64,000 nucleotides of DNA from an uncultured bacterium (lineage in GTDB: Bacteria > Eisenbacteria > RBG-16-71-46 > CAIMUX01 > WJJG01). Position 1 is the stretch's first letter. The number at the start of each line of letters is the position of its first letter. A program made the position numbers and the translations under genes. Shown piece after piece: positions 14,851-51,176 of this stretch. The stretch is taken from contig CAZDKK010000001.1 in NCBI GenBank assembly GCA_964506245.1, positions 289-64,288 of the forward strand. Reading direction: 5' to 3'. Below the pieces are notes generated by a model, which was not told where the DNA came from, did not search any database, and worked only from the letters and a program-made list of their open reading frames with translations.

Positions 14851-14925
14851 CCGGGCGACGGGATTCCAGCACACGGGCTTGGTCACCTCGCGCCGGCCTG
14901 CGGCGCGTCGCGGGAGATCTATCCC

Positions 14926-19800: not shown

Positions 19801-19996
19801 GTCCCCGGGGCCTGACGTCCGGAACGGCAATCCGCGGGCGCTGCACGAGGAGGTTCTGCGGCTCGAGCGACGCCTGGTGTCGGAGACGCTGACCGCGACG
19901 GGTTGGAACCGGGCCGAGACCGCCCGGCGCCTGCGCATCAGCTATCCGACGCTGCTGACCAAGATCAAGGTGTTCGGGCTGACGCCGACGCGGTGA
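16808..19996 (+). CDS. Large sigma54-dependent transcriptional activator with N-terminal TPR repeats and a GAF domain (1062 aa)
   Basis: TPR-like helical repeats over residues 40-470. A GAF-like segment, then an AAA+ sigma54-interaction domain (ILITGETGTGKGLLA, ESELFGHVAGSFTGA GAFTGA-variant, FLDEIG, RELIQVV). C-terminal Fis-type HTH (GWNRAETARRLRISYPTLLTKIK). Confidence 0.85.
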   Translation: MAEANRERNGTTRGPGAKGPHEASGAPPGGLREEMDRLVQVAELHLAADDTQAALEVLRRAEGLAVEGQADPAWTAGMKIRLADCLRGRGEFSAALEQVQQAIDLIADQGDGIVRGKALARAASLHVRLGDYASAQECASTAYELLRTTGEHAEIGTLELTLGTIHMRTGQVRRSQEFFESALFTFRRIGHREGTAKALNNLGILLKNGPRWKDALDYLRQTLAISEEMGNAGNIAMHCGNLGVLYSKMCDWKEAERALVRGISTCKEIGNSFTATCCHLAQGNLQRRRGRYARAAESYAQARQLAEQNKYGREIVLCWECEGDLLADEGKLDEARAHLERALEMARAVAPRGDLTPEIERRLAAIALRKGEAAEAERLTTRAYRGARQVGDNVEAGAALRILGDAYARQGKHAAASRVLQRAVEILGQTPDAYELALARISWGRCLGRPEAAKPHGDGHGQRLKAADQLQRAIEFFLSVELTGQAAEAVVELAEVRAGQRDLEGALRDIARGRSLAEQADRRDVIERLDRARAALETQSAEVAVLKSPEVEIIQDWSRFFSEGGADEVRLEGMLRFALERLESSRALLAAPAAPGGQPAVVAKVGLQDGQGDAILRAILPHVESRGLILAGGIAHDPRFASEAEGAFAGVRSFASLSLSLPEGKGVLYIDRRAGGSSVFGRGDLRVLSVVSGLLGLGLIQIRRERELQAQRQEREHPVRTGPLADYVTQDAEVLRVFAQLERVGDSTASILITGETGTGKGLLAQCIHRASARRDGPFITVNCAAIPETLLESELFGHVAGSFTGARADKRGLFEEAERGTLFLDEIGRTSLTVQAKLLHALDTHKIRRVGATRDHAVDVRVVCASNTDLLDAIRRGTFLEDLFYRLSDFTVHLPPLRERPGDIPLLLNSFYDRVCHELGRKPAGLDAEVRKLLLEHTWRGNIRELIQVVRRMVALSLDGERITADLLPRELLGTAAQPEPAPVRSPSPPDEGVPGWSPGPDVRNGNPRALHEEVLRLERRLVSETLTATGWNRAETARRLRISYPTLLTKIKVFGLTPTR

Positions 19997-22331: not shown

Positions 22332-24104
22332 TCAGCGCTCCGCACCACCCGGCGGCGCGGCGGTGGGGGCGTCGGGCGCACGGGCGCCGGGTCCGAGACG
22401 AGCCACGACCTCCCGCACGTGTGCCAGCTCCTCGGGGCGGAGGTAGCGCGCGGCCAGCTCCGGTTCCACCGCCAGGATCTGAAGCAAGATCTCCCCGACG
22501 GCCACGATCTCCTGTGTGTTGCGCTCGCGCTCCGCGATCAGGAAGAGCAGATGGATCGGGGGCAGGTATCCCGGGCGCTTGACCACGGCCTCCCGCGCCC
22601 ACCACTTGGCTTGCTCCAGCTCCCCGTCGCGAAAGCAGGCGGACGCGAGATTGTGGGCCATGCGCGGATCGTCGGGGTAGAGCCGTACCCCGTCCTCCAG
22701 CGCGGCGTACATCTCGCGGTGAAGGTCGTTCGATTCGAAGAGAAAAGCCAGATGGAGCGGCGGTGGATGATCGACATAATAGGGCGCCGGGTCGTCGCCG
22801 ATCAAGTCCTGCACGCGGCGGATCGACGCGTCCCCCGCGTTGACCATCACGAAGCCCCAGGTGTTCAAGAGCGAGAGCACGATCAGGGCAGAGAACAGCG
22901 GCGACAGGACAAGGCTCCAGCGTTTCGTGGGCCAGGCCTCTTCGGTTACGCGCGGCCGGGCGGCGACCGCCGCCCACAGCAGCAGCGGCAGGCCCGCGAA
23001 CGCCAGGATGTCCCAGTCGGCGGCACCCAGGATCGCCTTGACCTCCCACAGGCTCAGCGTGACGGGCAGCGCCGCGCTCAGCACGAGCCACGCGTGGCGC
23101 TCCAGACGCGCGCGCCCGCTCACGACAGCTATCACAACTCCAGCCAAGAGCGGCAGACCCAGCAGAGCCCCAGCCGGCGACGCGAGGACGAACGCATTGA
23201 CGCGCTCCCACCAGAGCGCGGGGGCGAGCAGCGACAACCGTCCTGCGCTTGCCGTATAAGGATAGAAGAGGGCGGGAACCAGTAGCGGAAGCGCCAGCGC
23301 GCCGGCCAGCACGGCAACCATCCCCAGAGCCATCGCGCGCCCCGATGGGGAATCGAGCCGCGGGCGATCGCCGGGCTCGAGCCGGAGCCCGCGCCGCCAC
23401 GCCACGAGCACCAGCAGGGGCAGGGCAAACGGGAGGGCGATCGCGTGCAGGGCGACCGCGACGGCGAACAACGCCGCGGTCACGAGGAGCGAGCCGCCCT
23501 CGAGCGCACGGTGCGCACTCGCCAGATAGAGCGCCAGAACAGCGAAAGCCCAGGAGTAGACCTCGATGTATCCGCAGAAGAGCTGTACACCCCCCAGGCC
23601 CAACAGCCCTAGATGCACCAGCCCGCGCTCGCGCGCGTCTCGGCCCAGGACTCGGGCGAGGCGCGCGGCTGCCAGCCCGAAGGGGATTGCCGCCAAGGTG
23701 TTCAAGGCCGCCAGGCTCGCGCGCGGCGCCAGTCCGCCGGCCGATGCACCCAGCCGCATCGCCGCATGTGCAAGCGCCATCGTGCCCCATTCGTAGGGCA
23801 GCATCTGTCCCCGCATCGCCTGTTCGAGCCGCAGCCAGTTGTCGCCCAGCAGGGCGTAGCGAGCACGCAGAGCCCAGCAGAGCGCGAGAAGCAGCAGGGG
23901 CACGAGAAGATCCCCGACGCGCCGACGCCAGCCGCTGTCCACTGCCGACCCGATCGCCCGGCCCCAGGCTCCCGCGCCACGATCGAGGAGGGCCCGACCG
24001 CGCGCGGTGACGAGGGCCAGCACGAGGAGACCGACCAGCAGCCCGAACGCGACGGTCCACCCACTGGGCAGATAACGCAGTGCGTCGAAGCCCCAGATGC
24101 GCAT
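22332..24104 (-). CDS. Polytopic membrane protein, putative GT-C-fold glycosyltransferase-like, with a C-terminal TPR-like soluble domain
   Basis: More than 12 TM helices, then a helical repeat C-terminus (DGELEQAKWWAREAVVKRPGYLPP...). ATG at 24104 (MRIWGF). It lies immediately downstream of another GT-C-like gene with a 1-nt gap. Confidence 0.55.
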   Translation of the reverse strand: MRIWGFDALRYLPSGWTVAFGLLVGLLVLALVTARGRALLDRGAGAWGRAIGSAVDSGWRRRVGDLLVPLLLLALCWALRARYALLGDNWLRLEQAMRGQMLPYEWGTMALAHAAMRLGASAGGLAPRASLAALNTLAAIPFGLAAARLARVLGRDARERGLVHLGLLGLGGVQLFCGYIEVYSWAFAVLALYLASAHRALEGGSLLVTAALFAVAVALHAIALPFALPLLVLVAWRRGLRLEPGDRPRLDSPSGRAMALGMVAVLAGALALPLLVPALFYPYTASAGRLSLLAPALWWERVNAFVLASPAGALLGLPLLAGVVIAVVSGRARLERHAWLVLSAALPVTLSLWEVKAILGAADWDILAFAGLPLLLWAAVAARPRVTEEAWPTKRWSLVLSPLFSALIVLSLLNTWGFVMVNAGDASIRRVQDLIGDDPAPYYVDHPPPLHLAFLFESNDLHREMYAALEDGVRLYPDDPRMAHNLASACFRDGELEQAKWWAREAVVKRPGYLPPIHLLFLIAERERNTQEIVAVGEILLQILAVEPELAARYLRPEELAHVREVVARLGPGARAPDAPTAAPPGGAER

Positions 24105-24105
24105 C

Positions 24106-25824
24106 TCAGGGTCCCGCTTGCCCGGACGAATCGACCGGGGCTTCCTGGTATCCGCTGGGGTGAAAGCGCAGGAATGCCCCGAAGCCACCGCCGGGGACCT
24201 CTTCGAACCAGATGGGCTCGAAGTACTTGGATTGGCGCCGTATGAAGGGATGCAGGATCTTGAGCACATCCTCGTAGGGAATGCTCGAGACGTGCACCAC
24301 CGTCACACCGCGCTGGCGCAGGTGATCCAGCATGCGCGCGTCGTCGGGTTCGCGCGGAAAAGAGACGGCCTCCAGCCCGGTGACGTAACGGAAGATGTTC
24401 GACTTGCGATCCAGCACGATCTCGCGCGGCGACAGGTTCTCATGCGCCCAGCCCAGGGCGTTGAAGTAGGCCTCCCAGCGGGGCGGATAATGCCGAACCT
24501 CGCCTGCATAGGCTGCAAGCCGCTGGCCGGCGAGGACGACGATGATCACCAGCAGCGCGGGCAGCACGAGAGCGCCGGGACGACGTAGCCCGGGCCGGCG
24601 CGCGGCTGCGTTCAACCACGCATCGCGCAGTCCCAGCGCGACGAGCAGGAAGCAGAGAGGCAGGATGGGGAGCACGAAGCGCACACTCGCCCAGATCGGG
24701 GGCCAGGCCAGGCAGATCGCAAGAAAAGCCGCCGTATAGGCAACCGTGACCGGCAGTCGTCGGGCCATCCGAACCAGACCGAGAAGCAGGAGGAGGCCCA
24801 CCAGCACCCCGCTCCAGGCCGGTAGCACCGGTGGCGGCGTGATCTCGGCCGTATAGGTGCTGCAGGCCGCATAGGGCACGAGGGCATGGGCGATGTCGAT
24901 GCAGAAGTACTGGCGGCCGTTCTGTGCCAGGCGATCGACCAGCGCCGGGAGGTTCAGCGTGCCCTCGTTGGGCAGATAGGGATTGATGTACCGAATCTGC
25001 TGCAGGTAGCTCTCGCCCTCGCCGCCGGCGAGCGCGCTGTGAAGCACCCAGGGGATGAGGACCACGGCGCACAGCACGGCGCTCACGACCGCGGCCCGCC
25101 CCTGTCGTCGCAGCAGGAGGACCAGGGGCAGCGCGGCCAGGACAGCGATGCCCACGGTGCGGATGTAGAAGGCCGCCCCGGCGGCGACAGCCCAGGGCAA
25201 GAGGGCCCGCGTGTGGACGAGCCACGGTGCGCCGGCGATCCGACGCCCGCGCTTCTCATGCCCGGGGTCCTGGCTCCCGGCGATGTGGACGACCCGGTCC
25301 GTGGCGCGCTCGCCCAGCCAGAGCGCGATGACGCTGGCGAGCAGAAACGGGATCTCGGACATCACGTAGTGCGAGAACTCGACGACGGAGAGGATGAGCA
25401 TCGCGGCCCCGGCGATGGCGAAGGCCGCCCAGGAAGGCCCGGGTGGTGCGCTCCGGGGCCCGACCTTCACGGGGGGCGCACCCCGCGACACCGCCCGCTC
25501 GGCCAGCCACAGGAGTCCGACCCCCGCGGCGGCATAGCACAGGACGGACAGGACCTTGCCCGCCATGAATCCGGTGCCGAAGAGGAGCTGCAAGGGCACG
25601 AGCAGCAGGGGGAAGAGCGGTGGGTACTTCGAGCTGGCCCACAGGTTGCCCTCGCGCCACACCTTCTGGGCCAGCAGGATGTAGTCGACGTTGTCGCCGT
25701 TGACGTAGAGCTTGGGATCGAACGTGATGCCCGAGACCATGAGCAGGGGCACGATCAGCAGCAGGGCCCGGGCGCGAAAGGAGCCGAGGAGGTAACCGGC
25801 ATCGCGCTCTTGCTTGCGGGCCAC
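24106..25824 (-). CDS. GT-C-fold membrane glycosyltransferase family protein (ArnT / PMT_2, GT39/GT83-like)
   Basis: N-terminal TM, then a first extracytoplasmic loop with an acidic motif (YVNGDNVDYILLAQKV). Twelve or more TM helices and a C-terminal soluble domain. The architecture is typical of undecaprenyl/dolichyl-phosphate-sugar-dependent transferases. Confidence 0.7.
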   Translation of the reverse strand: MARKQERDAGYLLGSFRARALLLIVPLLMVSGITFDPKLYVNGDNVDYILLAQKVWREGNLWASSKYPPLFPLLLVPLQLLFGTGFMAGKVLSVLCYAAAGVGLLWLAERAVSRGAPPVKVGPRSAPPGPSWAAFAIAGAAMLILSVVEFSHYVMSEIPFLLASVIALWLGERATDRVVHIAGSQDPGHEKRGRRIAGAPWLVHTRALLPWAVAAGAAFYIRTVGIAVLAALPLVLLLRRQGRAAVVSAVLCAVVLIPWVLHSALAGGEGESYLQQIRYINPYLPNEGTLNLPALVDRLAQNGRQYFCIDIAHALVPYAACSTYTAEITPPPVLPAWSGVLVGLLLLLGLVRMARRLPVTVAYTAAFLAICLAWPPIWASVRFVLPILPLCFLLVALGLRDAWLNAAARRPGLRRPGALVLPALLVIIVVLAGQRLAAYAGEVRHYPPRWEAYFNALGWAHENLSPREIVLDRKSNIFRYVTGLEAVSFPREPDDARMLDHLRQRGVTVVHVSSIPYEDVLKILHPFIRRQSKYFEPIWFEEVPGGGFGAFLRFHPSGYQEAPVDSSGQAGP

Positions 25825-25996: not shown

Positions 25997-28276
25997 TCAG
26001 GACCAGGGCAGCCCCAGCCTTTGCCAGACCGATTCCCCGTCGGGAATGCGTCCGGGCTTGAGGTGCCGGTAGGTCGTGAACAGGAACCAGGCCAGCGGGG
26101 TCACCCCCAGACCGATGATGACCAAGTCGGGCAGCAGCCGGATCTGGCCCAGGAACTTCACCATGGGACGCTCGAAGAAGGCGGCATCGCGCGCAGCCCA
26201 GATCCCCTCGCGGAAGCTCGTCCAGGCCTGAGCAATGCCGACCGGGAAGAGCGTGATCAGCACCATCAGCAGCAACCCCACGTTCAGACCGAAGAAGGAG
26301 ACCCTGAGCAGCCGATCGTTCCAGTACTGCTTCTCCACCAGCCCGCGCCAGGAGAAGAGCAGCAGGGCGATCGACAGCATGCCGTAGGTGCCGAAGAGCG
26401 CCGCGTGACCATGGTTCATCGTCAGGTAGGTGCCGTGCTCGAAGTAGTTGACGATCGGGAGATTGATCAGGAATCCGAAGACCCCGGCACCGAGGAAGTT
26501 CCAGAAGGAAGAGGCCACGAGGAAGTAGAGAGGCCAGCGATACGGGAATTCCCGTCCCTCTTTGCGGATCGACTTGTACTCCATCAAGCCGCGCACGACG
26601 ATGCCGAAGAGCGGCACCGGTTCCAGCGATGAGAAGACCGCCCCCAGGCCCAGCCAGAGAGACGACCCACCGTACCAGAAGTAGTGGTGGGCGACGCCGA
26701 CGATGCCGCTCAGGAAGACGATCGTGGCCGTGAAGTAAGAGACGACCAAAGCATCGCGCGCCGAGGCGAGACCCATGGTGACCAGCAGCACCGAGATCAC
26801 GGCCACGCCAAAGAACTCGAAGATGCTCTCGACCCAGATGTGCACGACGAACCAGCGCCAGTAGTCGGCAACGCTCAGGTGCGTTCCGCGCCCATAGAAG
26901 AGGCCGAAAGCGAAGAAGGCCACGACCAGGATCGCGCTGAAGACATAGAAGGCGACGAGCTGGTGGAACTCGTCGGTGGAGGCCCGGCGCAGGCTGCCCG
27001 CCACGGCGCGGTAGACGATGGCGAGCCAGGCGAGCAGGCCCACGAAGAGCAGGATCTGCCAGAGTCGACCCAGCTCCAGGTACTCCCAGCCCTGATGTCC
27101 GAGCCAGAACCACCAGTTCCCCAGACCGCCTTTGATTCCGGCCACCTCCCCGATCAAGCTGCCGCCTGCCACGACCAGAATCGCGGCGAACAGGAGCTGG
27201 ACCAACAGGCCCTGCCGGCGGGGTTCGCGGCCGCCGACGATGGGCGCGAGGTAGATGGCGGATGCCACCCAGGTCGTGGCAATCCAGAAGATCGCGAGCT
27301 GCAGGTGCCAGGATTTCGCCCAGCTGTAGGGAATCAGGGACGCCACCGCCGGGATGTAGAAGCGCGAGGGGTGAACGGTGTAGTGGGCCAAGAGACCGCC
27401 GAACGAGGTCTGCACGAGGAAGAGCAGGATGACGACCAGGAAGTACTTGGCGGCCTTCTGCTGGCTGGAGGTGAGCGGCATGTCGATCAGCTTCTCGGCC
27501 AGCGGCACCCCCTTGCTCGGCCCGTACCAGATCTTGTAATAGTGCACGAGATAGATGAACAGGCCCAGGATCAAGAACAGCGCCAGGATTCCACCCAGCG
27601 TCCATAGATAGACTTCGCTGGTCGGCGCATTGCCGACGCTCGGATCCGGCGGCCAGTTGTTCGTGTAGCTGTAGTTCTTGTCCGGGCGATTGGTCGAAGC
27701 GGCCCAAGCGGTCCAGAAGAAGAAGCAGGCGATCTGCCGGCGCTCCTCCGGCGAGACGATGGTATTGGGCAGGAACCCGTAGTCCGAGTTGCCCGCGCCG
27801 AAAGTCTCTTCCCAGAAGCGTTCGTTTGCGGCGATGGCGTTGGCCTGCGCGACGGTCAGTCGCAGAGTGCCCGTACCCGGGTCGTAGCGGTTGGTCCTCA
27901 TCTCCGTGCGGACCTTGAGGTCGAGAATCCGGCGCTGCTCATCCCGGAGCTGGTCCACCGGGAACCCGTAGATCTCCTGGCAGAGCTGCGCGCGAATCTC
28001 CGTCCCGAGCAGGTGCACCGTCACCGCGGAGAACTCCATCCCGCGCTGGGAACCGTGGCCCCAGACGCTGCCGTGGTCCATCAGCCCGTAGCGCTGATAG
28101 ACGTCCTGGCCGGCCAGGATGTCGGCGCGGGTGATGAGGGCACGGCCCTCGGGCGCCATCACCCGTTCGGGGTAGGGGGGCACCTGACGGTTGGCGGACA
28201 GGCCGCCGATCAGCAGGATGGCCATGGCCGAGAAGAAGGCCAGGATGGCCGCCCACTTCAACTTGGTCAGAGACAT
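25997..28276 (-). CDS. norZ: Quinol-dependent nitric oxide reductase (qNOR, single-subunit NorZ/NorB type)
   Basis: ATG at 28276 with a GAGGAGG RBS. N-terminal TM plus a periplasmic NorC-like extension, then a heme-copper oxidase subunit-I-like core with 12 or more TM helices and conserved His ligands (HHYFWYG, NHGHAALFG). Total 760 aa. Confidence 0.9.
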   Translation of the reverse strand: MSLTKLKWAAILAFFSAMAILLIGGLSANRQVPPYPERVMAPEGRALITRADILAGQDVYQRYGLMDHGSVWGHGSQRGMEFSAVTVHLLGTEIRAQLCQEIYGFPVDQLRDEQRRILDLKVRTEMRTNRYDPGTGTLRLTVAQANAIAANERFWEETFGAGNSDYGFLPNTIVSPEERRQIACFFFWTAWAASTNRPDKNYSYTNNWPPDPSVGNAPTSEVYLWTLGGILALFLILGLFIYLVHYYKIWYGPSKGVPLAEKLIDMPLTSSQQKAAKYFLVVILLFLVQTSFGGLLAHYTVHPSRFYIPAVASLIPYSWAKSWHLQLAIFWIATTWVASAIYLAPIVGGREPRRQGLLVQLLFAAILVVAGGSLIGEVAGIKGGLGNWWFWLGHQGWEYLELGRLWQILLFVGLLAWLAIVYRAVAGSLRRASTDEFHQLVAFYVFSAILVVAFFAFGLFYGRGTHLSVADYWRWFVVHIWVESIFEFFGVAVISVLLVTMGLASARDALVVSYFTATIVFLSGIVGVAHHYFWYGGSSLWLGLGAVFSSLEPVPLFGIVVRGLMEYKSIRKEGREFPYRWPLYFLVASSFWNFLGAGVFGFLINLPIVNYFEHGTYLTMNHGHAALFGTYGMLSIALLLFSWRGLVEKQYWNDRLLRVSFFGLNVGLLLMVLITLFPVGIAQAWTSFREGIWAARDAAFFERPMVKFLGQIRLLPDLVIIGLGVTPLAWFLFTTYRHLKPGRIPDGESVWQRLGLPWS

Positions 28277-28323
28277 TGCAGCCTCCTCGCTGGCGGGGCC
28301 CCTTGCTGGGCGCCCCCCAAGGT

Positions 28324-28728
28324 TCACGGTTGGATCCGGAAGTCCGTCAGCCTGGTCTCGGACAGGTGCTTCATGATCTCGGCCCATACGTTCTCGAAGA
28401 CCGCTGCGAAGACGCACTGCCCCGGCCCGCAGATGGGATGGCCCAGCAGGCACCGGGGCGGGGCCAGCGGGCCCTCGATCGCCTCCAAGACCTCGCGCAC
28501 GGAGAGCTGCCGCGGGTCGACGGCTAGGCTGAATCCGCCGGCCGCGCCGCGGGTGGACTCGAGGAACCCGGCGCTGACCAGTCGATGGAGCACCTTGGCC
28601 ACGTGAGACTCGGAGCAGCGCAGCCGGCCCGCGATGTCGGGTGCCGAGAGACGCGCGTCGGGACCGGCGGCGGCGATATAGGCCAGGGCATGGATGGCCA
28701 GGTTGGACGCCTCGGAGAAGGAGAGCAC
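28324..28728 (-). CDS. nsrR: Rrf2-family transcriptional regulator, NsrR-like NO sensor
   Basis: GTG start at 28728 with a GGGAGG RBS. Rrf2 wHTH (LSFSEASNLAIHALAYIA...SHVAKVLHRL) and a three-Cys cluster (CLLGHPICGPGQC) for Fe-S binding. It sits directly upstream of qNOR on the same strand. Confidence 0.8.
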   Translation of the reverse strand: MLSFSEASNLAIHALAYIAAAGPDARLSAPDIAGRLRCSESHVAKVLHRLVSAGFLESTRGAAGGFSLAVDPRQLSVREVLEAIEGPLAPPRCLLGHPICGPGQCVFAAVFENVWAEIMKHLSETRLTDFRIQP

Positions 28729-28748
28729 GAGACCTCCCTGGGTTAATC

Positions 28749-28779
28749 CCGAATTCGGAGTCAGAATACAGGAATTTCC
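28749..28779. promoter_or_regulatory. Candidate operator palindromes in the nsrR upstream region (CCGAATTCGG and GGAATTTCC)
   Basis: A perfect 10-bp palindrome and a 4-1-4 palindrome lie 20-50 nt upstream of the nsrR start. No match to a characterised NsrR box is claimed. Coordinates are approximate. Confidence 0.2.
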
Positions 28780-28814
28780 CCTGGGGCACAATGGCGGGTG
28801 AGGCCGCTGAGCCA

Positions 28815-29706: not shown

Positions 29707-30066
29707 TCAGGTGATTCCCAGCTCGGTCAGACGTGCGCGGGCCTCGGCCTCGGTTTCCCGCACGTTCAGCACACCCTCCAGACCGACGATGCCCATGACG
29801 CAAAGCACCCGGGGCGAACAGCTGTACACCGACATGGCTCCCCCGATCTGCTGTGCACGCGCCAGCAGGCGCACCAATATGCCGATGCCGCCGCTGCTCA
29901 TATATCGTACGCCGCTCATGTCGATGAGAAGGGCTGGCGCCCCCGGGCCTACCCGATCCGAAACCCCGTCCCACAATGCAGCCGCGCCGAGCGCATCGAG
30001 GTTCCCCTCAAGCCTCACGCGATGGCAATGCTTGAGTTCCGTGTCCCGTTCACAGACCACGCGCAT
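29707..30066 (-). CDS. STAS-domain anti-sigma-factor antagonist (SpoIIAA-like)
   Basis: 119 aa with the conserved phosphorylatable-serine region (LLIDMSGVRYMSSGGIGILV). Confidence 0.8.
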   Translation of the reverse strand: MRVVCERDTELKHCHRVRLEGNLDALGAAALWDGVSDRVGPGAPALLIDMSGVRYMSSGGIGILVRLLARAQQIGGAMSVYSCSPRVLCVMGIVGLEGVLNVRETEAEARARLTELGIT

Positions 30067-30229: not shown

Positions 30230-30246
30230 AGGAACGATACTTGCAC
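30230..30246 (+). promoter_or_regulatory. Candidate sigma54 (-24/-12) promoter upstream of the octad-repeat protein gene
   Basis: aGGaACG-N4-TTGCA, with the GG and GC elements 12 nt apart as in the consensus TGGCACG-N4-TTGCA. The -12 element TTGCA is perfect. It lies about 85 nt upstream of the ATG at 30332. A receiver-less sigma54 EBP gene is adjacent. Confidence 0.35.
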
Positions 30247-30331
30247 TCCCCCAGGCCAGATCCAGCGCTTCCTGCGATGGATCTGGGTTGAGACAGGAAG
30301 CTACCCGTTAATCCTAAGCAAGGAGGTCGCC

Positions 30332-30940
30332 ATGTCCACTCATTCGTTCAAGCGCCCCACCACCGTTGCTTCGGAGGCGTGTCCGCCCCCTGCAGGAGCG
30401 ACGACCACCGGTGCAGCAGCCATCACTCCCGAGGAGTTTGAGAAGCTCACCCCGGAGCAGATCGCCGCCCTCACGCCCACGCAGATTCGGGCTCTGAGCC
30501 CGAAGTGCTTGTCGCGCCTGAGCCCCAAGCAAGCTGCCTCCCTCACGCCGAAGTGCTTGGTGACGCTGGCCCCGAAGCAGGTTGCCACCATCGCCCCCAA
30601 GTGCTTTGCGACCCTGGCCCCGCGGCAGTTCGCCAGCATCGCCCCGAAGTGTCTGGCGACGCTGGCCCCGAAGCAGATTGCGAGCGTGGCCCCCAAGTGC
30701 TTTGCGACGCTGGCCCCGAGGCAGTTCGCCAGCCTCGCCCCGAAGTGTCTGGCGACGCTGGCCCCCAAACAGGTCGCGAGCGTCGCCCCGAAGTGTCTGG
30801 CGACGCTGGCCCCGAAGCAGTTCGCCAGCCTCGCCCCGAAGTGTCTGGCGACGCTGGCCCCCAAGCAGGTCGCCGCGCTCGCCCCGCGCCAGGTGGCCGC
30901 GCTGTCGCCCCGGCAGGTCGCGGCCCTGCCGATGGGCTAG
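30332..30940 (+). CDS. Cys/Pro-containing octad tandem-repeat protein (203 aa); no family assignment, candidate substrate/precursor of the adjacent module
   Basis: ATG at 30332 with an AAGGAGG RBS. After a 38-aa N-terminus the rest consists of 20 consecutive 8-residue repeats L-[ATS]-P-[KRET]-[QC]-h-[AS]-x, alternating LAPKCLAT / LAPKQVAS, and ends in LPMG. Confidence 0.7.
   Translation: MSTHSFKRPTTVASEACPPPAGATTTGAAAITPEEFEKLTPEQIAALTPTQIRALSPKCLSRLSPKQAASLTPKCLVTLAPKQVATIAPKCFATLAPRQFASIAPKCLATLAPKQIASVAPKCFATLAPRQFASLAPKCLATLAPKQVASVAPKCLATLAPKQFASLAPKCLATLAPKQVAALAPRQVAALSPRQVAALPMG
30446..30925 (+). repeat. Tandem repeat of about ten 48-bp units (20 x 24-bp half-units) inside the CDS, encoding the octad repeats
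   Basis: Near-identical units gccccgaagtgtctggcgacgctggccccgaagcagttcgccagcctc are read directly in the sequence. Confidence 0.85.
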
Positions 30941-30994: not shown

Positions 30995-32251
30995 TCATTC
31001 CTTGCGCTCGATGACCTCGGACAGCCTCAGCAGGTCTTCCCGATAGGCCTGGGGCAGCTTGGCGAACGCCTTGCGCAGCGCGATCATCCGCCTTCCAGGA
31101 CTGTTCCCACCGCGCTCCCAAGCGCGGATCGCCACGCGCAGTGTCTGCCCCAATTTGCGCTGCACCAGCGGAGCCAGAGACGGATCACCGGCCAGGCCGA
31201 GGGCCGCAGCCTCCAGGTTGCCGCGCTCCGCGGCGAGTGCGCGGAATCCCTCGCCCGCCAGGTAGTAGGTCAGACCGCTCCGGGAACAGACTGGAACGCT
31301 GCGCCGGGGAGAGGTGCGCCGTCGAGCGGTAAGCATGCGTTCTGCCAGCGCGATGTTGAAGTGGTACACGCGCAGCTGCTCGATCACCCAGGCACCGACC
31401 TCGCTGCCGGGCTGGAGGCGGGGGGAGCTGGCCAACCCATCACTTGGTGGAGCGTCCGAGAGCCGGTGGCGCGCGAAGACGGCGGAGACGTGCCGATCGT
31501 GGATCTCCTGGCCGCGCGCTTCAATGAGCAGCGCGCTCACGATGTTTTGAAGCTCGCGCACGTTCCCTGGATAGGCGTAGGCGAACAGGCGGCGCAGCGC
31601 AGCCGGATGGACGGGCGGGCAGGGCCCCCCGAGCTGCGCCGATCGTTCTCTGAGGAAGTGGTTGATCAACAGAGGAAGGTCTTCCCGCCGTTCGCGGAGC
31701 GGCGGCAGATGCAGCGGAAAGACGGCCAGACGGTAGTAGAGGTCACGCCGAAACTCCCCATTGCGAACCGCCCGTTCCAGGCTGCGATTGGTCGCGGCCA
31801 CCACACGCGCCTCGGTCTTGAGCTGTCGCTCCCCACCGACCGGCAGAAAGACGCCGTCCTGCAACACGCGCAGGAGACGGACCTGCGCGGAGGGAGACAT
31901 CTCGGCAATCTCATCCAGGAAGACGGTTCCGTGACCTGCGCGCTCGAACAGCCCCCGATGGGCGCGCACCGCGCCCGTGAAAGCCCCGGGCACGTGGCCG
32001 AAGAGTTCGCTCTCCAGCAGAGACTCGGGAATCGCCCCGCAGTTGATGGTCTCGAAAGGCTGCCGGTCGCCGCAGGAGATCTCGTGCACAATCGTCGCGA
32101 TCAGCTCCTTGCCCGTTCCCGACTCGCCTTCCAGCAGTACGGGGCAGTGCACCGCGGCTACCTTCGCGACATCCTCGAGAACCGCGCGAATGACCGCGCT
32201 CTCTCCCACACAGCGGAGAAACGCCGGATGTTGCGTCTCGCTCGGGGCCAT
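30995..32251 (-). CDS. Sigma54-dependent transcriptional activator lacking a receiver/sensor N-domain (AAA+ domain plus C-terminal DNA-binding region)
   Basis: ATG at 32251 (MAPSETQHPAF). Motifs LLEGESGTGKELIA, ESELFGHVPGAFTGA (GAFTGA), FLDEIA, RELQNIV. Putative Fis-like HTH, then an extra C-terminal region of about 90 aa. Confidence 0.85.
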   Translation of the reverse strand: MAPSETQHPAFLRCVGESAVIRAVLEDVAKVAAVHCPVLLEGESGTGKELIATIVHEISCGDRQPFETINCGAIPESLLESELFGHVPGAFTGAVRAHRGLFERAGHGTVFLDEIAEMSPSAQVRLLRVLQDGVFLPVGGERQLKTEARVVAATNRSLERAVRNGEFRRDLYYRLAVFPLHLPPLRERREDLPLLINHFLRERSAQLGGPCPPVHPAALRRLFAYAYPGNVRELQNIVSALLIEARGQEIHDRHVSAVFARHRLSDAPPSDGLASSPRLQPGSEVGAWVIEQLRVYHFNIALAERMLTARRRTSPRRSVPVCSRSGLTYYLAGEGFRALAAERGNLEAAALGLAGDPSLAPLVQRKLGQTLRVAIRAWERGGNSPGRRMIALRKAFAKLPQAYREDLLRLSEVIERKE

Positions 32252-32400
32252 GGGGTGCGTGACCCCCCATCTGTCTCTCGGTAACCGCGCAGCCGCCACG
32301 CTGTCACGTCGGCCACGGTCGGGAGCCGCAACCTCCGTCGAGGTCACCGTCCCGTTTGCGGAGCCCGCCGGTCGATCGCGGGCCGTGAGGAAATGCCGCG

Positions 32401-33216
32401 ATGCGTTTCCGCGCTGCGAGGACCAAGCCGCAGTGGGCGTTCCTGCTGTCCCTGGGCCTGCTGGCGGCATCATCGCCGGCGCCCGCGCAGTCAAGCGCGG
32501 CGCCGGCGGACACGGATGGCGATCCGAGCCTCTCCGCCGATTCGCGCATCTTTCCCGGCATCCTGCTGCCGGCCAGCACAGCCCTGATCAAGGCCCCGCG
32601 CGACGAGAGGATCGCATCGGTCGCGGTCCACGTCGGTGACGTCGTGAGGAAGGGACAACTCCTGATCGAGCTGGTGGCCGACGAAGAACGCGTGACCCAA
32701 GGACGCGCAGCGGCGGTGCTCGAGCAGGCGCGGGACGAGCTCGACCGCGTGCGGCGGCTGTCCGCGGAACACCTGACCTCCGACGAGGCCCTCGAGGTGG
32801 CCGAGACCGCCTACCGGATCGCGCGCGCCGATCACGAGCTGGACTCGCTGCGCTACGCGGAATCCTCGATCCGGGCCCCCTTCGACGGCGTGGTCGCGGA
32901 GCTCCGCGTGGACCCTGGAACATCGGTCGAGACCGGTGACAACCTGGTGCGCGTTGCCTCCAGGTCGCTGCTGCGCCTGGAGGTTCTGCTCCCCGAGGAG
33001 ATGCTGCCAGCCTTCACCGTCGCGACGGTGGTGGAGGTGCAGCCCACCCATCCCGACACGACGCTCCACTTGCCGGTGTACGCACGTCCGCTGGTGGTGG
33101 ACCCGAGCAGCGGCACGTTTACGCTGGAGATCGAGGTCCCCAACAAGGCTGGGCGCCTGATTCCTGGTGTAAGCTGCCAGGTGAGCGTGCGAACAGCGTC
33201 GGGCGATGCACCGTGA
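32401..33216 (+). CDS. Short periplasmic HlyD-family membrane-fusion/adaptor protein (biotin-lipoyl-like plus beta-barrel)
   Basis: Signal peptide. Lipoyl-like hairpin motifs (ILLPASTALIKAPRDERIASVAVHVGDVVRKGQLLIEL... IRAPFDGVVAELRVDPGTSVETGDNLVRVAS). TGA overlaps the GTG of the next gene. Confidence 0.75.
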   Translation: MRFRAARTKPQWAFLLSLGLLAASSPAPAQSSAAPADTDGDPSLSADSRIFPGILLPASTALIKAPRDERIASVAVHVGDVVRKGQLLIELVADEERVTQGRAAAVLEQARDELDRVRRLSAEHLTSDEALEVAETAYRIARADHELDSLRYAESSIRAPFDGVVAELRVDPGTSVETGDNLVRVASRSLLRLEVLLPEEMLPAFTVATVVEVQPTHPDTTLHLPVYARPLVVDPSSGTFTLEIEVPNKAGRLIPGVSCQVSVRTASGDAP

Positions 33217-35273
33217 ACCCTGCGCGGGTCTACCAGCTCCGCCACGACCTGGTCATTCGGCGGCGCGTCTTCGGCGAATCGGTCAAGTACTTGGTCAAGG
33301 ACCCGCAGCGCCTCGAGTACTACACCATCGACGAGTGGACCTACCAGCTGCTCTCCTTGTGCGATGGCCACCGCGACCTGGGGGCGCTGAGCGCCGCTGC
33401 CCGTGAACGTCTTCCGGACATGGACCTGAACCCGTTGACGATTCTGGAGTTCTGCGAGACCTATCGGCGTTTCCACTTCTTCGAGGACAGCTGGGAGCGG
33501 AATATCCTGCTGATCGAGCAACGCCGCGGCTCGCGCCTGAAGCGCTTGCGCAAGGCATTCGCCAACCCGCTCGAGATCCATCTGCCAGCCTGGGACCCGG
33601 ACCTCTTCTTCAGCCGCATCGTCCGGCCCCTGGGTTTCCTGTACACGCGATCGGCGCTGGTGGTCTACGCCACACTGATCCTGCTGGCGATCTGGCTCTC
33701 CGCCACCCACGCGGATGAGTTCGCGCTGTCCTTCCGGGAGCTGTGGGTGATTCCCGGGAAGACGGGCTTGGGCCTGATCGCGCTGTGGGCGGCGCTGCTC
33801 CTGACCGTCGTGATGCACGAGGTCGGGCATGGCCTGACCTGCAAGCACTACGGCGGCGGCGTCCACAAGATCGGCTTTCTCCTGCTCTACTTCAATCCCT
33901 GCATGTTCTGCGACGTGACCGAGAGTTACTTCTTCGATGACCGGCGCAAGAAGCACGCGGTGACCCTGGCGGGCGGACTGGTCGATCTGCTCACCGCCGC
34001 GGCCGCGACGTTTGTCTGGTACTTCACGGTGCCGGATCTCTTCCTGAACGCCGTGGCCCACCGGGTGGCGATCTTCAACGGCGTGACGGGCATCTTGGTC
34101 AACTACAATCCGCTGATGAAATACGATGGTTACTTCCTGTTCAGCGATCAGCTCGGGATCCCGAATATGCGGGGCGAGTCGTTCCACTTCCTGGGCAACC
34201 GCGTCCGCGGGCTCTTGCGACTGCCGCACGAGGAGGAGCTGGTCTCCGCGCGCGAGCGCCGGATCTTCTGGATCTACGGGATCTGCGCGTTCGCCTACAG
34301 CGTCTTCGTGCTGTGGTTCGTCCTGCGCTTCGTCGGGGGGTGGCTCGTGCATCTCCTCCGGGGCGCCGGGTACGTCCTGACCGCCGCGTTGCTGTTCCTG
34401 ATGACCAAGGGCTACTCGCGCAGGCTATTCGGCTTCGCGCGTTTCGTGGCGCTGGACAAGGGCGGGCATTTCCGCCGCTACCGGGTGCCCTACCTGGCGG
34501 GACTGGCGGCAACGCTGGCCGCGCTCTTCCTGCTGCCCGTCCCGCGCCACGTGCGGGGGGAATTCGTGCTGCACCCGGGGAGCGAGGTCGTGGTGCGGGC
34601 CGAGGTGACAGGCGTGATCGAGTCGGTGCATGCTGACGAGGGGGATCGCGTGGCCGCGGCAAGCACACCGGTCGTGCTGCGCGCCGAGAACGTGATTCTC
34701 GGGGTGGAGGAAGCGCGCAGCCTGCGGCAGTCGGCCGGGGCGCAGCGCGCCGCAGCGCAGGTCGCCGGGGAGCCAGCCGCCGCGGTGGCTGCTGCGGCCA
34801 GGATGACCGCTGGGCAGGCGCTCGAGCATTACTACCGCTCCCGCGAGGTGTATCTGCGCCCACCGGCGCCGATCAGCGGCATCGTATTGACGCCCCGCCT
34901 GCGCGAAAGGGTCGGTCTGGCGTACGTTCCGGGAGACACCCTCTACGTGGTCGGCGAACTGGGCACGCTCCGCGCCGAGGTTCTCCTGGACGAACGTGAC
35001 ATGGGGCTGTTGACCCCCGACCAGCCGGTAGAACTGCGCACGCGCGCGACCGCGGGGCAGAGGCTCCTGGGTCACATCGAGCAGATCTCCCAGGAGCCTT
35101 CGGCCCTGCGGACTCGGCCGCTCTACCGGGTCGTCGTGCGCGTCGAGAACCCGGAGGAGATCTGCCGGCCGGGGCAAGAGGGCGTGGCCCGGTTCGCTGC
35201 GGGAAGGCTCTCGTTGATCGGTCATGCTCTGTCTGGGCTGGCCCGGACGTTCCGGATCGAGTTCTGGGTGTGA
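33213..35273 (+). CDS. Tripartite fusion: N-terminal PqqD-like RRE domain, membrane M50 (site-2 protease type, HExxH) metalloprotease, C-terminal HlyD-like domain
   Basis: Residues 5-95 follow the PqqD/RRE pattern (RVYQLRHDLVIRRR...YYTIDEWTYQLLSLCDGHRDLGAL...LTILEFCETYRRFHFF). Multi-TM core with HEVGHGLTCKHYGG. C-terminal HlyD-like beta-barrel/lipoyl motifs (VRAEVTGVIESVHADEGDRV..., VVRVENPEE..RPGQEGVARF). Confidence 0.75.
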   Translation: MNPARVYQLRHDLVIRRRVFGESVKYLVKDPQRLEYYTIDEWTYQLLSLCDGHRDLGALSAAARERLPDMDLNPLTILEFCETYRRFHFFEDSWERNILLIEQRRGSRLKRLRKAFANPLEIHLPAWDPDLFFSRIVRPLGFLYTRSALVVYATLILLAIWLSATHADEFALSFRELWVIPGKTGLGLIALWAALLLTVVMHEVGHGLTCKHYGGGVHKIGFLLLYFNPCMFCDVTESYFFDDRRKKHAVTLAGGLVDLLTAAAATFVWYFTVPDLFLNAVAHRVAIFNGVTGILVNYNPLMKYDGYFLFSDQLGIPNMRGESFHFLGNRVRGLLRLPHEEELVSARERRIFWIYGICAFAYSVFVLWFVLRFVGGWLVHLLRGAGYVLTAALLFLMTKGYSRRLFGFARFVALDKGGHFRRYRVPYLAGLAATLAALFLLPVPRHVRGEFVLHPGSEVVVRAEVTGVIESVHADEGDRVAAASTPVVLRAENVILGVEEARSLRQSAGAQRAAAQVAGEPAAAVAAAARMTAGQALEHYYRSREVYLRPPAPISGIVLTPRLRERVGLAYVPGDTLYVVGELGTLRAEVLLDERDMGLLTPDQPVELRTRATAGQRLLGHIEQISQEPSALRTRPLYRVVVRVENPEEICRPGQEGVARFAAGRLSLIGHALSGLARTFRIEFWV

Positions 35274-35350: not shown

Positions 35351-37453
35351 ATGGGTGTCATGAAAGACCCCAACAGCGTGTCGGGCGAGGCCAGGGACAG
35401 AGAGTTGGAGGCCCTCTACACCCAGGTGGTGCAGAACGCCGCTCGTCTCATGGTCGTCCATGAGGCGAGCAGCATCCTGCGGTCCACGCACGACCCAGAA
35501 GAACTGGCGCGCGGTCTCCTGACCACGGTGACCGAGGCGGTCCTGGCCGGCTCGGGGTGTGTCGCCGGCCTGGAGGGCGATGAGCTGAAGGTCCTGGCCA
35601 CCAGCGGTCTGACGGATGAGGAGGTGGAAACCCTCGCTGCTAACGCGAGCGAGGCTCAGGCCTGGTTCGCAGTGGCCGATGGCGAAGATCCGCAGACACG
35701 CCAGCAGCTCACCGAGGTGCTGGGCTTCGCGGTGGGTGAGTCAGCCGAGAGTGGGGAGGACGATGGAGACGCTCCGGATGAGCCCGAGTGGCGCGGGGAG
35801 GCCGACGACGAAGAACCCGAGTCCTACGAGCACCTGTGGGACGAAGCCGAGGAGGCGGCCGAGTCCGAGCCTGCAGCGGGGGGATCGGAGTTCGGTCCAT
35901 CCGCCGCGCCCGCCTTCGAGCTCTACCTTCCCCTGCGCGTGGAGGACGAGGTGCTGGGGGTGCTCGTCCTCGGCCCGCGCGTGGACGGACAGGAGTACCG
36001 CGAAGACGATGTGCAACTCGCCCGGTCGCTCTCCGCACACCTGGCGCTGGCCCTCAACCACGCGGCCCTCTTCGCCGAGCGCAGTCGTCGCATCGAGCAG
36101 TTGTCGGTCCTGCTTCGGATATCCCGGGAGATCACGAGCACCCTCGACCTTGATCGCGTTCTCCAGACCGTCGTCCAGATGATGGCCTTGGTCGTCCCCA
36201 ACCGGAGGTCCGTGCTGGCCCTGACCTCGGCCCGCGGCGTCTCGCTCCGGGCCAGCTCGGATCCCTCGTTCCAGCCCAAGGAGGTCAGCCGCGATTCCAT
36301 CCTCCCCATCCTGCAGTGGGCCCAGGATGCGCGCCAGCGCATCAACACCCACCGTGCCGCGCTGGAGCAAGACGCCGAGGCCGAAGGCCGGGATCTGCTT
36401 CTGCCGTGGCTCAGCCGAGAGCGTGGACCGCGTGGGTTGGCGGTGATGCCCCTCGAGGACGATCAGGGCGTGCTCGGACTGCTCGCGATCGAGACCGACA
36501 GCGACGCCATGCCCCTGGACGAGAACCACGAGGAGCTCGTCAGCATCCTTGCCAACCAGGCGACGGTCGCGGTCCGCAACGCTGAGCTCTACCAGCAGGT
36601 TCCGATGATCGGCTTCCTCGAGCCGATCCTGGGCAAGGTGCGGCGCGCGCGCGCGGCGGGGTCACGCCGGCTGCTGATCCGGGCGGGGGTCGTGATGGCG
36701 ATCCTGGCCGCCGGTTTCCTCATTCCGATCCCCGCGTGGGTCTCGGGTGATGCCCAGCTACGGCCATTCGCGCCGATCGCTTTGCGCGCCGGGACAGAGG
36801 GTACCGTCGATGAAGTGCTGGTCCGCGAGGGTCAGTCGATCCGGGCCGGGACCGTGGTCGCGCGCTTGCGCCGCGATGAGTTCGAGGTCGAGCTCGAGCA
36901 GACCCGCGCCGAGACCCGCCGGGCCCAGGCCGAGGCGGCCCAGGCGCGGATCGCTGGCGATCTCGCCACGTATCGCGCCCGCCAGGCGAAGCTCGGCGAG
37001 CTGACGCGGACGGAGCAGTTCCTGGTCTCCGAGCTCGAGCGCACCGAGCTGGTGGCGCCCTCCGACGGCGTTGTTCTCACGCAGGATGTGGAGCGACGCC
37101 AGGGCGCCCACCTGCGACCCGGCGAGACCCTGCTCGAGCTGGCCGATCTCGCCACGATGGAGGTAGAGGTCTCCCTCGCGGGGCACGACATCCGGTCCAT
37201 CGGTCAGGGAAGCCGCGCGCGGCTCAAGGTGCAGGCCTACCCCGGTCGCACGTTCCGGGGCGAGGTGACACGCATCGCGCCGAGGTCGGACCGCGACGGG
37301 ACCTTTCGGGTGACGATGCGACTGCCCAACACGGACGGGGCGCTGCGTCCTGGCATGACTGGGCGGGCTCACGTGGAGATTCCCGGGCGCCCAGCGCTGG
37401 TCTCCCTCTTCGCACCGGTTGTGCGCCGGTTGCGGCTGGGGCTCTGGCTGTGA
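35351..37453 (+). CDS. GAF-domain(s)-HlyD fusion protein: cytoplasmic GAF sensor region, one TM helix, periplasmic HlyD-type domain
   Basis: GAF-like segments (LYLPLRVEDEVLGVLVLGPR...; second: VLALTSARG...GLAVMPLEDDQGVLGLLAIETD...ATVAVRNAELY). TM (LLIRAGVVMAILAAGFLIPIPAW). HlyD features (coiled coil EVELEQTRAETRRAQAE..., LVAPSDGVVLTQDVE..GAHLRPGETLLELAD, MTGRAHVEI). Confidence 0.7.
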   Translation: MGVMKDPNSVSGEARDRELEALYTQVVQNAARLMVVHEASSILRSTHDPEELARGLLTTVTEAVLAGSGCVAGLEGDELKVLATSGLTDEEVETLAANASEAQAWFAVADGEDPQTRQQLTEVLGFAVGESAESGEDDGDAPDEPEWRGEADDEEPESYEHLWDEAEEAAESEPAAGGSEFGPSAAPAFELYLPLRVEDEVLGVLVLGPRVDGQEYREDDVQLARSLSAHLALALNHAALFAERSRRIEQLSVLLRISREITSTLDLDRVLQTVVQMMALVVPNRRSVLALTSARGVSLRASSDPSFQPKEVSRDSILPILQWAQDARQRINTHRAALEQDAEAEGRDLLLPWLSRERGPRGLAVMPLEDDQGVLGLLAIETDSDAMPLDENHEELVSILANQATVAVRNAELYQQVPMIGFLEPILGKVRRARAAGSRRLLIRAGVVMAILAAGFLIPIPAWVSGDAQLRPFAPIALRAGTEGTVDEVLVREGQSIRAGTVVARLRRDEFEVELEQTRAETRRAQAEAAQARIAGDLATYRARQAKLGELTRTEQFLVSELERTELVAPSDGVVLTQDVERRQGAHLRPGETLLELADLATMEVEVSLAGHDIRSIGQGSRARLKVQAYPGRTFRGEVTRIAPRSDRDGTFRVTMRLPNTDGALRPGMTGRAHVEIPGRPALVSLFAPVVRRLRLGLWL

Positions 37454-37462: not shown

Positions 37463-38029
37463 CTACATGAAGCGCTCGAACCGGTCTTGCTTCGCCTTGC
37501 AGATCGGACAGATCAGCGGGGGCTTCTCCCGGGCGCACAGGTACCCGCAGACGCGGCAGCGCCACACCGGCAGCGTTGGTTCCGCTCGCTCCGCCGCTGC
37601 GGCCAGGCGCTGGGCCGGCCCCGGTGTGCCGGCGTCCGCAGGCCGTCGCTCGGGAATCGGGGCGGGCTTCACCTCGCCCGCCAGGACGCGGTCCGAGACG
37701 TAGAGGGCGCAGAAGCAGGCGTCGAACTCGTCGAGGTCCGCGTCCCGGTAATCGCACGGGCAGATGATGTCACGGTCGATCTCCTGATTGCCCTCGGCCA
37801 AGCGGCACGGACAGGCCCAATAGCCGTAGCGGGCTTCGTTGACGAGCAGACCACGCACCAGGTCGCGTGTGAACTCGAGGTCGGGGTTCAGGTGGTATCC
37901 CGCGGCCTCAGCCTCTCGCTGCAGGCGCGCGTGGAGCGCCGCGGTGCGCTCTGGCGTGACAGAGCCGGCAGCGTCGTTCGGGCGCGGATCGCCGGAGTTG
38001 CCCCGGCCGGGTGTTGCGGGATCACGCAT
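37463..38029 (-). CDS. Ferredoxin:thioredoxin-reductase-like catalytic subunit fused to a C-terminal rubredoxin-type zinc ribbon (FDR-like ferredoxin:disulfide reductase)
   Basis: FTR catalytic cysteine pattern CPC-x15-CPC-x11-CFC (WACPCRLAEG...IICPCDYRD...DACFCALY). C-terminal CxxC...CxxC rubredoxin-like motif (WRCRVCGY...LICPICKA). It overlaps the upstream glutaredoxin gene by 8 nt. Confidence 0.75.
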   Translation of the reverse strand: MRDPATPGRGNSGDPRPNDAAGSVTPERTAALHARLQREAEAAGYHLNPDLEFTRDLVRGLLVNEARYGYWACPCRLAEGNQEIDRDIICPCDYRDADLDEFDACFCALYVSDRVLAGEVKPAPIPERRPADAGTPGPAQRLAAAAERAEPTLPVWRCRVCGYLCAREKPPLICPICKAKQDRFERFM

Positions 38030-49517: not shown

Positions 49518-49690
49518 GGTCGCAACCCCCAGTCTCAAAGGTGTCCCTTGCCGTCATGCGATTCCCTGCTGGATGCCGGGGCATCGGCAGGGCATCTATG
49601 AAGCGACCTCGGGCGGGCCACGGGGGTCCTCCGAGGTAACGCATGTAAACTATACACCATAAGTATACGCATGTCAAGTTTGTCGTGGAA

Positions 49691-51041: not shown

Positions 51042-51176
51042 GGTTTGCTCCACGATCTGATTATGCACGCGCGCAGTACGAAAGGGAATGCGCACCGGCA
51101 TCGGGGAATGCTATGACTGTCCGGGCCGAGGATTCCGGAAGAGATCGGCTGGCGTGAGGATCACGGTGGAGGGGGC

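Follow-up and report, generated by a model that had tools for sequence, protein, structure and literature searches.

A predicted inner-membrane protein joining an RRE, a site-2-type zinc protease and a HlyD domain within a conserved gene cassette of diderm bacteria

Why should a domain of the kind that binds leader peptides, an intramembrane protease and a periplasmic adaptor be parts of one and the same polypeptide? The question is raised by an open reading frame (ORF) in a stretch of 64,000 nucleotides (nt) from an uncultured bacterium of the Eisenbacteria (GenBank assembly GCA_964506245.1, contig CAZDKK010000001.1, positions 289 to 64,288), hereafter called the window. [quoted passage not shown] Here we confirm that an RRE, a site-2-type zinc protease and a HlyD adaptor domain, predicted to be periplasmic, are joined in one inner-membrane protein of 686 residues. 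With a rough probability of 0.55, slightly better than even, we read this protein as the central part of a self-contained cassette of diderm bacteria in which leader-guided cleavage would be coupled to the export of unmodified peptides through the envelope.

Three domains in one membrane protein

The gene and the parts of its product are the following (aa, amino acids; TM, transmembrane; MFP, membrane fusion protein):

33213..35273, + strand: RRE–M50(S2P)–HlyD protein, 686 aa, inner membrane; GTG start at 33213, stop at 35271–35273
33234..33482, + strand: RRE, a PqqD-like winged helix of three strands and three helices, residues 8–90, predicted to be cytoplasmic
33585..34532, + strand: seven-TM S2P/M50-like core, residues about 125–440
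33816..33830, + strand: HExxH motif for zinc binding and catalysis (H202, E203, V, G, H206), on TM2 at its cytoplasmic end, invariant in 38 homologs
34101..34130, + strand: NxxPxxxxDG motif (N297, P300, D305, G306) with the third zinc ligand of S2P proteases, invariant in 38 homologs
34536..35270, + strand: predicted periplasmic HlyD/MFP domain, residues 442–686, with lipoyl-like and beta-barrel subdomains

The ORF was found exactly as it had been called, with a codon bias such as genuine genes have. The G+C contents of its three codon positions (0.70/0.47/0.83) are typical of genes in this genome, the window as a whole having 68% G+C. The start codon lies in a 4-nt overlap with the end of the HlyD gene upstream. 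NCBI and Logan assemblies contain an identical protein, and full-length relatives of 686–720 aa are numerous.

Among curated families, the NCBIfam model NF041824 (daptide intramembrane metalloprotease) gave the best match, with 173.9 bits and an E-value of 5.4e-51. Residues 26–396 were aligned to positions 18–363 of the 379 in the profile, and the match spans both the N-terminal domain and the protease. As 174 bits compare with an equivalog cut-off of 300, the protein is considered a homolog of this family and not an equivalog. A weak match to NF058609 (YydH/LiaK epipeptide maturation metalloprotease; 38.1 bits, 1.3e-9, cut-off 225) was confined to residues 187–308.

A Pfam scan of the whole 686-aa protein at E ≤ 1 returned no PqqD match, so that the RRE becomes visible only after excision and comparison across relatives, and by structure. 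Residues 1–135 were cut from 29 diverse relatives for this purpose. The excised domain of the window scored 13.7 bits (E 0.082) against PqqD (PF05402) and did not reach the gathering cut-off of 23.4, while PqqD matches at E ≤ 10 were obtained for 23 of the 29 relatives, the best with an E-value of 2.6e-6. A precomputed PF05402 match is present in two relatives. When the alignment profile of the domain was compared with the sequences of the PDB, the PqqD protein 3g2b ranked first. The AlphaFold2 model has a pLDDT above 90 across residues 11–90, with three strands followed by three helices, and its best structural matches are RREs. The domain is kept across the family, including its surface-defining residues. 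The earlier PqqD/RRE call thus fell short in the Pfam score and held in the structural comparison, where a match to another fold was absent.

Both catalytic motifs of the protease core are unchanged in the 38 homologs, whose identities go down to 26%, and the HExxH helix aligns to that of mjS2P. The protein has the S2P membrane-core fold. Peptidase_M50 of Pfam (PF02163) scored 18.3 bits, compared with a gathering threshold of 27.2, and covered only residues 192–288 around the HExxH motif. Hydropathy gave seven TM helices, and the loop of residues 397–424 is strongly basic (8 K+R vs 1 D+E). On the count of TM helices and the positive-inside rule, the RRE is predicted to be cytoplasmic and the HlyD domain periplasmic.

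In the C-terminal part, HlyD_D23 (residues 459–654) and HlyD_3 scored above their gathering thresholds, and HlyD is the strongest Pfam match of the whole protein. Lipoyl, alpha-hairpin and beta-barrel elements of HlyD/MFP proteins were all found together with scores above the family thresholds; the hairpin is short (residues 492–548), and the chain ends in an amphipathic helix. Family, profile and structure-prediction tests thereby bore out the three modules of the first-pass annotation. This includes the multi-TM HExxH protease, with its invariant motifs and S2P core fold, and the lipoyl/beta-barrel domain at the C-terminus; the proposed topology agrees with the prediction given above.

When one genome per species was scanned with a sequence pattern, relatives turned up at more than 596 loci. 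Most belong to Acidobacteriota, and others to Candidatus Eisenbacteria, Planctomycetota, Gemmatimonadota, Bdellovibrionota, Chlamydiales and Zixibacteria; the closest among these species-representative loci is from Candidatus Eisenbacteria (62% identity). With residues 1–445 as the query, 1,392 cluster representatives (50% identity) were retrieved at E ≤ 1e-30 and 6,108 at E ≤ 1e-10. The best 150 clusters are mostly 680–860 aa long, which leaves enough length for the adaptor domain. The tripartite fusion is not rare, being represented by hundreds of loci and more than 1,000 protein clusters. In public databases the relatives go under generic names ("efflux RND transporter periplasmic adaptor subunit", "HlyD family efflux transporter..." or, in IMG, "putative peptide zinc metalloprotease protein").

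The tripartite fusion had been noted as not known to form a characterised family. This has to be narrowed, as the pairing of RRE and S2P is already described as MpaP; the C-terminal HlyD fusion and the cassette were not found in the literature searched, whose coverage leaves out most subscription journals. What is new is the fusion to HlyD together with the conserved cassette and its leader-plus-repeat genes, and of the two the genomic setting carries more weight. To our knowledge, all RRE-guided intramembrane leader peptidases known so far come from daptide clusters in Gram-positive bacteria. The relatives collected here reveal a much larger sister group of the daptide peptidases, mostly in poorly studied soil and sediment phyla.

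The cassette and its leader-bearing genes

Six genes of the window, which span 7.7 kb, make up the cassette. In addition to the protease gene, its features are (EBP, enhancer-binding protein; RBS, ribosome-binding site):

29707..30066, − strand: STAS-domain protein, anti-sigma-antagonist-like, 119 aa, divergent from the repeat-peptide gene (tblastn with the STAS protein of locus L001: 47% identity, E 3e-32)
30230..30244, + strand: candidate sigma-54 (−24/−12) promoter AGGAACGATACTTGC, GG-N10-GC, 87 nt 5' of the repeat-peptide start codon
30332..30940, + strand: putative precursor, 202 aa, with the leader MSTHSFKRP... and 20 eight-residue repeats; RBS AAGGAGG at 30320–30326
30995..32494, − strand: sigma-54-dependent activator (AAA+ EBP), ORF of 499 aa as listed, without a receiver domain (Pfam Sigma54_activat 4e-63, AAA_lid_14)
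32401..33216, + strand: secreted HlyD/MFP adaptor of 271 aa that begins with a signal peptide (TIGR01730 RND_mfp, 118.7 bits, above cut-off)
35351..37453, + strand: GAF-GAF-TM-HlyD protein, 700 aa, with a single TM helix at residues 442–460 (Pfam GAF, GAF_2, GAF_3, HlyD_D23, HlyD_3)

Conservation of neighbouring genes was determined by an all-against-all comparison of the ORFs in 80 related loci, designated by numbers with the prefix L. Only four real families proved to be conserved neighbours of the protease, namely the GAF-HlyD protein, the small HlyD protein, the sigma-54 activator and the STAS protein, and all of them are present in the window. The GAF-HlyD protein, with its GAF part in the cytoplasm and its HlyD part in the periplasm, accompanies the protease in nearly all loci. 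A small HlyD protein occurs in 70 of the 80; the 271-aa adaptor of the window matches HlyD_3 and HlyD_D23 of Pfam and has a signal-like N-terminus. EBPs were found in 60 loci and STAS proteins in 52, the latter being Pfam-annotated in L001, L003 and L006. The activator of the window has matches to NCBIfam models of the NifA/NtrC type; because the listed TTG start overlaps the HlyD gene, its true start is probably Met82 at 32251. Modifying enzymes (aminotransferase, oxidoreductase, methyltransferase, DUF-RRE, YcaO, radical-SAM or Lan) are absent from the cassette of the window, and none is conserved in the 80 loci.

Some variation was seen between loci. In those of the Eisenbacteria type, the activator is PspF-like, with neither a receiver nor a sensor domain at its N-terminus. 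Activators of Acidobacteriota carry a Response_reg domain (L003, 11065–12489(−); L006, 10728–12134(−)), and a histidine-kinase-like ORF adjoins in about 10 loci. In L008, two transposase-like ORFs (12404–13486(−) and 13711–15063(−)) split the GAF-HlyD gene from those of the STAS protein, the repeat protein and the activator, with all components kept.

The 20 repeats of the window protein run in register through residues 38–197 and follow the pattern x-L-[AST]-P-[KR]-[QC]-[LVIF]-A. Eight of them contain a cysteine (8 Cys in total), and the protein ends in ...ALPMG. The repeat matches the Pfam family ALTTAQ_rpt (PF20080) with 6e-9, above its cut-off. Syntenic orthologues are present in L001 (MSIRSFKRP...) and L008 (MATRSFKRP...), where the leader matches and the repeats are free of cysteine; the three genes define leader type D, M[SA]xxSFKRP followed by LAPKQVAx repeats. 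By exact-sequence look-up, the protein starting at 30332 is absent from the protein collection, in which another start was called or the gene was left uncalled. Judged by its leader and position, the repeat protein of the window is a likely substrate of the 686-aa protease.

Analogous leader genes occupy the gap between the protease and activator genes in other phyla, with leaders of other types. Type A (31 loci) consists of small lysine-rich ORFs of 20–40 aa, usually in 2–4 tandem copies, in which the leader MAKKTLKK[AS]KK[LI]ExTKPL is followed by 4–12 variable residues. Examples are found in L003 (10284–10928(−)), L012, L029–L036, L045–L049, L060 and L073, among others. In type B (18 loci), the leader M[TS]I[QE]KKSLIS.L.TTKKAIVAS precedes tandem repeats that are wholly different in each genome; the units are KKANVLTAKAFS (x4), GKRVEL (x9), GTHGKL (x8), ARPAV (xn) and TAARTA (xn). 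The constancy of this leader and the very fast divergence of the repeats can be seen in L006 (10241–10495(−)), L058 (10107–10373(−)), L063 (10186–10473(−)), L083 and L084. Type C (10 loci) has the leader MAKEVRIKLTDAQKAKIK... or MAKEVRIKLTDAQKAKIKEATGK...EIRV and then other repeats.

Type E has the leader ...EELE[EQ]RIAP, which is close to the daptide motif ELExMEAP, and tails rich in Gly, Asn and Pro. Up to seven such ORFs of 51–67 aa flank a longer subfamily of the protease (about 810 aa), which has a longer HlyD hairpin; this arrangement was noted in L005 (775–1650 and 7094–7778), L038, L055, L074 and L076. Pfam PqqD is detectable in some members of this subfamily, and its loci are without the GAF-HlyD protein and the sigma-54 activator. 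In L019 (about 4296–4461(−)) and L025 (about 147(−)), both from Gemmatimonadota, the motif ELEEKEAP is reiterated between short segments (RRASVFGEEDAP); from their sequence, these proteins look like multi-core precursors with reiterated recognition or cleavage sites.

Since nucleotide variability of the leaders falls from the third through the first to the second codon position (0.46/0.26/0.16) and each gene has an RBS, the leader genes are considered real, and the conserved leaders carry the signature of purifying selection. Neither NCBIfam nor Pfam has models for leader types A–E. Matches of the repeat parts to LpxD hexapeptide, histone H1-like and similar families were dismissed as low-complexity artefacts.

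Elements of the sigma-54 type were found upstream of these genes. Of the 18 type-B genes, 16 have TTGGCA-N-TGC at a distance of 46–57 nt upstream, and the remaining two at 65 and 78 nt; in the form TTTGGC...TTGCATA, the element also precedes many type-A genes by about 51 nt. Weaker elements precede the repeat-peptide genes of the window (87 nt) and of L001 (72 nt).

We infer that the RRE may bind the leader of the co-encoded precursor. RRE identity between loci with the same leader type is 38%, compared with 27% between types at equal divergence of the protease core (35–45% identity); as the locus pairs are not phylogenetically independent, this tracking is weak evidence.

Other genes of the window were noted in passing. 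Directly downstream of the cassette, on the opposite strand, a small protein (37463–38029(−)) combines a ferredoxin-thioredoxin-reductase beta-chain domain with a C-terminal rubredoxin-like domain. A second sigma-54 activator (16808–19996(+)), which at 1,062 aa is much larger than that of the cassette, begins with a TPR/MalT-like region and has an HTH_8 domain at its C-terminus. A PEP-CTERM/exosortase context is given by a family 4 (GT4) glycosyltransferase with its best match to the PEP-CTERM/XrtA-system family TIGR03088 (41155–42279(+)), a 245-aa protein with a PEP-CTERM ending (48798–49538(−)) and another GT4 enzyme (49872–51101(−)). The 930-aa product of 25997–28789(−) belongs to the NorB/COX1 type and includes a cytochrome-c-like domain; about 200 of its N-terminal residues are unmatched, and it has no NCBIfam match. 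Two ORFs of 644 and 571 aa (22332–24266(−) and 24106–25821(−)) have a high G+C content at third codon positions and no Pfam match at E ≤ 0.001, and overlap by about 160 nt as listed.

Proposed role and alternative readings

If leader cleavage is coupled to export, the sigma-54 activator would turn on the gene at 30332–30940 for the leader and its 20 eight-residue repeats. The cytoplasmic RRE of the 686-aa protein would capture the leader and hand the peptide to the S2P-type zinc site near the cytoplasmic face, where the leader would be removed and cuts might perhaps also be made between repeats. The three HlyD domains, which belong to the protease, the 271-aa adaptor and the GAF-TM-HlyD protein, could assemble into a periplasmic conduit leading to an outer-membrane channel encoded elsewhere, and the cytoplasmic GAF domains and the STAS protein may gate or regulate the machine. 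This functional reading is better grounded because leader-bearing genes with sigma-54-type promoters adjoin the cassette. In a bolder form, which we put forward as a tentative and rather doubtful possibility, the RRE-guided S2P would be the inner-membrane part of an assembly of three HlyD paralogues, an undescribed trans-envelope secretion machine without an ATPase. It would release short, unmodified and fast-diversifying peptides, possibly one per repeat, from sigma-54-controlled precursors. In soil phyla, Acidobacteriota and Eisenbacteria among them, these peptides would have a signalling or antimicrobial function.

Several observations weigh against coupled cleavage and export. No ABC, RND or MFS transporter gene and no TolC-like gene is conserved in the 80 loci or lies near the cassette in the window. 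With no such energy source conserved nearby, vectorial export would have to proceed without an evident motor; the pump or outer-membrane partners are possibly encoded elsewhere. S2P proteases normally cut transmembrane or hydrophobic helices, and neither the repeat protein nor the lysine-rich peptides are evident candidates for insertion into the membrane. The 686-aa protein is sub-threshold for PqqD and Peptidase_M50 of Pfam and also for NF041824, its best curated family, where it stays below the equivalog cut-off. The sigma-54 element of the window is weak, with 2 mismatches, and matches to the consensus are not enriched window-wide (44 vs 60 expected), so that the promoter call there relies on comparative position only. 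Finally, as its repeat falls in Pfam ALTTAQ_rpt, the repeat protein may have its own structural function.

Followed to its end, the last point would make the repeat protein an unrelated structural ALTTAQ-repeat neighbour and leave the RRE with a different partner or as a vestige. In favour of this, besides the Pfam match, are the length of 202 aa, large for a precursor, and an orientation that varies between phyla. However, three Eisenbacteria-type loci have kept the leader-plus-repeat gene in synteny through rearrangement and the insertion of a mobile element, analogous genes join the cassette in other phyla, and the surface-defining residues of the RRE are conserved, and we regard an unrelated neighbour as rather improbable. 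The reading as a daptide-type or otherwise classical RiPP cluster, in which the protease trims the leader of a modified peptide and tailoring enzymes are encoded nearby or elsewhere, draws on the daptide metalloprotease as the best curated match, on the resemblance of type-E leaders to ELExMEAP and on the 8 Cys, which could be modified. The absence of any tailoring enzyme from the cassette and from the conserved neighbours, the score of 174 vs 300 bits for NF041824 and precursors that do not end in Thr make it quite improbable, and a daptide cluster was rejected for want of the tailoring genes. Hardly credible, in our view, is a plain adaptor that serves a drug or metal efflux pump and whose N-terminal two-thirds are a non-catalytic membrane anchor. 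It would agree with the naming of relatives as RND or HlyD-family adaptor subunits by PGAP, the NCBI genome annotation pipeline, and with HlyD as the strongest Pfam match, but it leaves unaccounted for the HExxH and NxxPxxxxDG motifs, invariant in 38 homologs, the conservation of the RRE across the family and the co-occurring leader-bearing peptide genes. An efflux-pump subunit was rejected on the invariant motifs and the lack of a pump gene (RND, ABC or MFS) conserved alongside.

The most serious rival is a signalling protease, in which regulated intramembrane proteolysis would feed the sigma-54 activator. The peptides would be signals or regulators, such as Eep-like autoinducers, and the HlyD, GAF and STAS parts sensors and scaffolds. 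Regulatory parts are indeed plentiful (GAF, STAS and the sigma-54 activator, with a receiver domain and sometimes a histidine kinase in Acidobacteriota), and type-A tails of 4–12 aa behind a conserved leader are pheromone-like. The S2P enzymes RseP and Eep process signalling peptides, which also counts in its favour. Three separate adaptor domains are, however, hard to ascribe to sensing, and their folds match efflux adaptors down to the channel-contacting alpha-hairpin. We therefore judge signalling unlikely as the whole explanation; it is compatible with export, as a pheromone must still leave the diderm cell.

Should leader cleavage be coupled to export as proposed, peptides would be produced and exported across two membranes without an ABC transporter, and the annotation 'efflux RND adaptor' would conceal a protease and a substrate-recognition domain. 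The cassettes would also constitute a natural system of conserved leaders with hypervariable cores or tandem repeats, attractive for peptide discovery and engineering. Concrete RRE–leader pairs are available for testing, for example RRE residues 1–120 with the MSTHSFKRPTTVASEA... peptide.

Comparison with known systems

MpaP has been proposed as the RRE-dependent intramembrane leader peptidase of daptides, whose clusters encode several precursors with the leader motif ELExMEAP (Ren et al., 2023; PMC10028931). Like MpaP/DapP, the 686-aa protein has an N-terminal RRE fused to a multi-TM, S2P-like HExxH protease. Several similar leader-bearing precursor genes per locus are a further common feature, and the type-E leaders resemble the daptide motif. 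Unlike MpaP/DapP, the protein carries an additional C-terminal HlyD domain, predicted to be periplasmic. Its hosts are diderm (Eisenbacteria, Acidobacteriota and others), whereas daptides come from Actinomycetota or Bacillota. In contrast to daptide clusters, the cassette has no tailoring genes (DUF-RRE, dehydrogenase, pyridoxal-phosphate-dependent aminotransferase or methyltransferase) and no ABC transporters, and includes sigma-54, GAF and STAS regulatory parts. The substrates differ as well, being without a C-terminal Thr and often built from tandem repeats.

Membrane-embedded zinc proteases of the S2P clan that remove the leaders of ribosomal peptides are also found in EpeP/YydH/LiaK and in TmcP of the TMcins. 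EpeP is thought to couple leader cleavage with export (PMC10885120), and for TmcP (DUF3267, S2P clan) genetics show removal of the TmcA leader in the membrane (PMC13252029). These proteases have neither RRE nor HlyD domain, act in Gram-positive hosts and belong to clusters with modifying enzymes, unlike the protein described here. RseP, SpoIVFB and Eep (PF02163, MEROPS M50) have PDZ or CBS domains in place of the RRE and HlyD domains, and their substrates are transmembrane anti-sigma factors or pro-sigma K.

Precursors of the cyanobactin PatE type consist of a leader followed by several short cassettes. The precursors proposed here share this layout, and in L019 and L025 also the reiteration of a recognition-like motif. 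Unlike in PatE systems, no macrocyclase or heterocyclase is encoded, and the number of repeats reaches about 20.

CvaB/CvaA/TolC and RaxB/RaxA are Gram-negative systems in which leader cleavage is coupled to export via a peptidase-containing ABC transporter and a HlyD-type adaptor. As in CvaB/CvaA/TolC, a leader-specific protease would be physically coupled to a HlyD-based trans-envelope conduit, here on the strength of predicted domains. In CvaB and RaxB, the protease is a cytoplasmic C39 cysteine domain fused to an ABC transporter driven by ATP, with the adaptor as a protein apart, whereas here a single chain contains both a zinc intramembrane protease and the adaptor, and the cassette encodes no ATPase. 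With respect to MacA, AcrA, MexA and EmrA, the differences are that no cognate pump gene is present, that the HlyD domain has a 7-TM protease as its anchor where those proteins have a lipid or a single helix, and that three different adaptor-domain proteins are encoded in one cassette.

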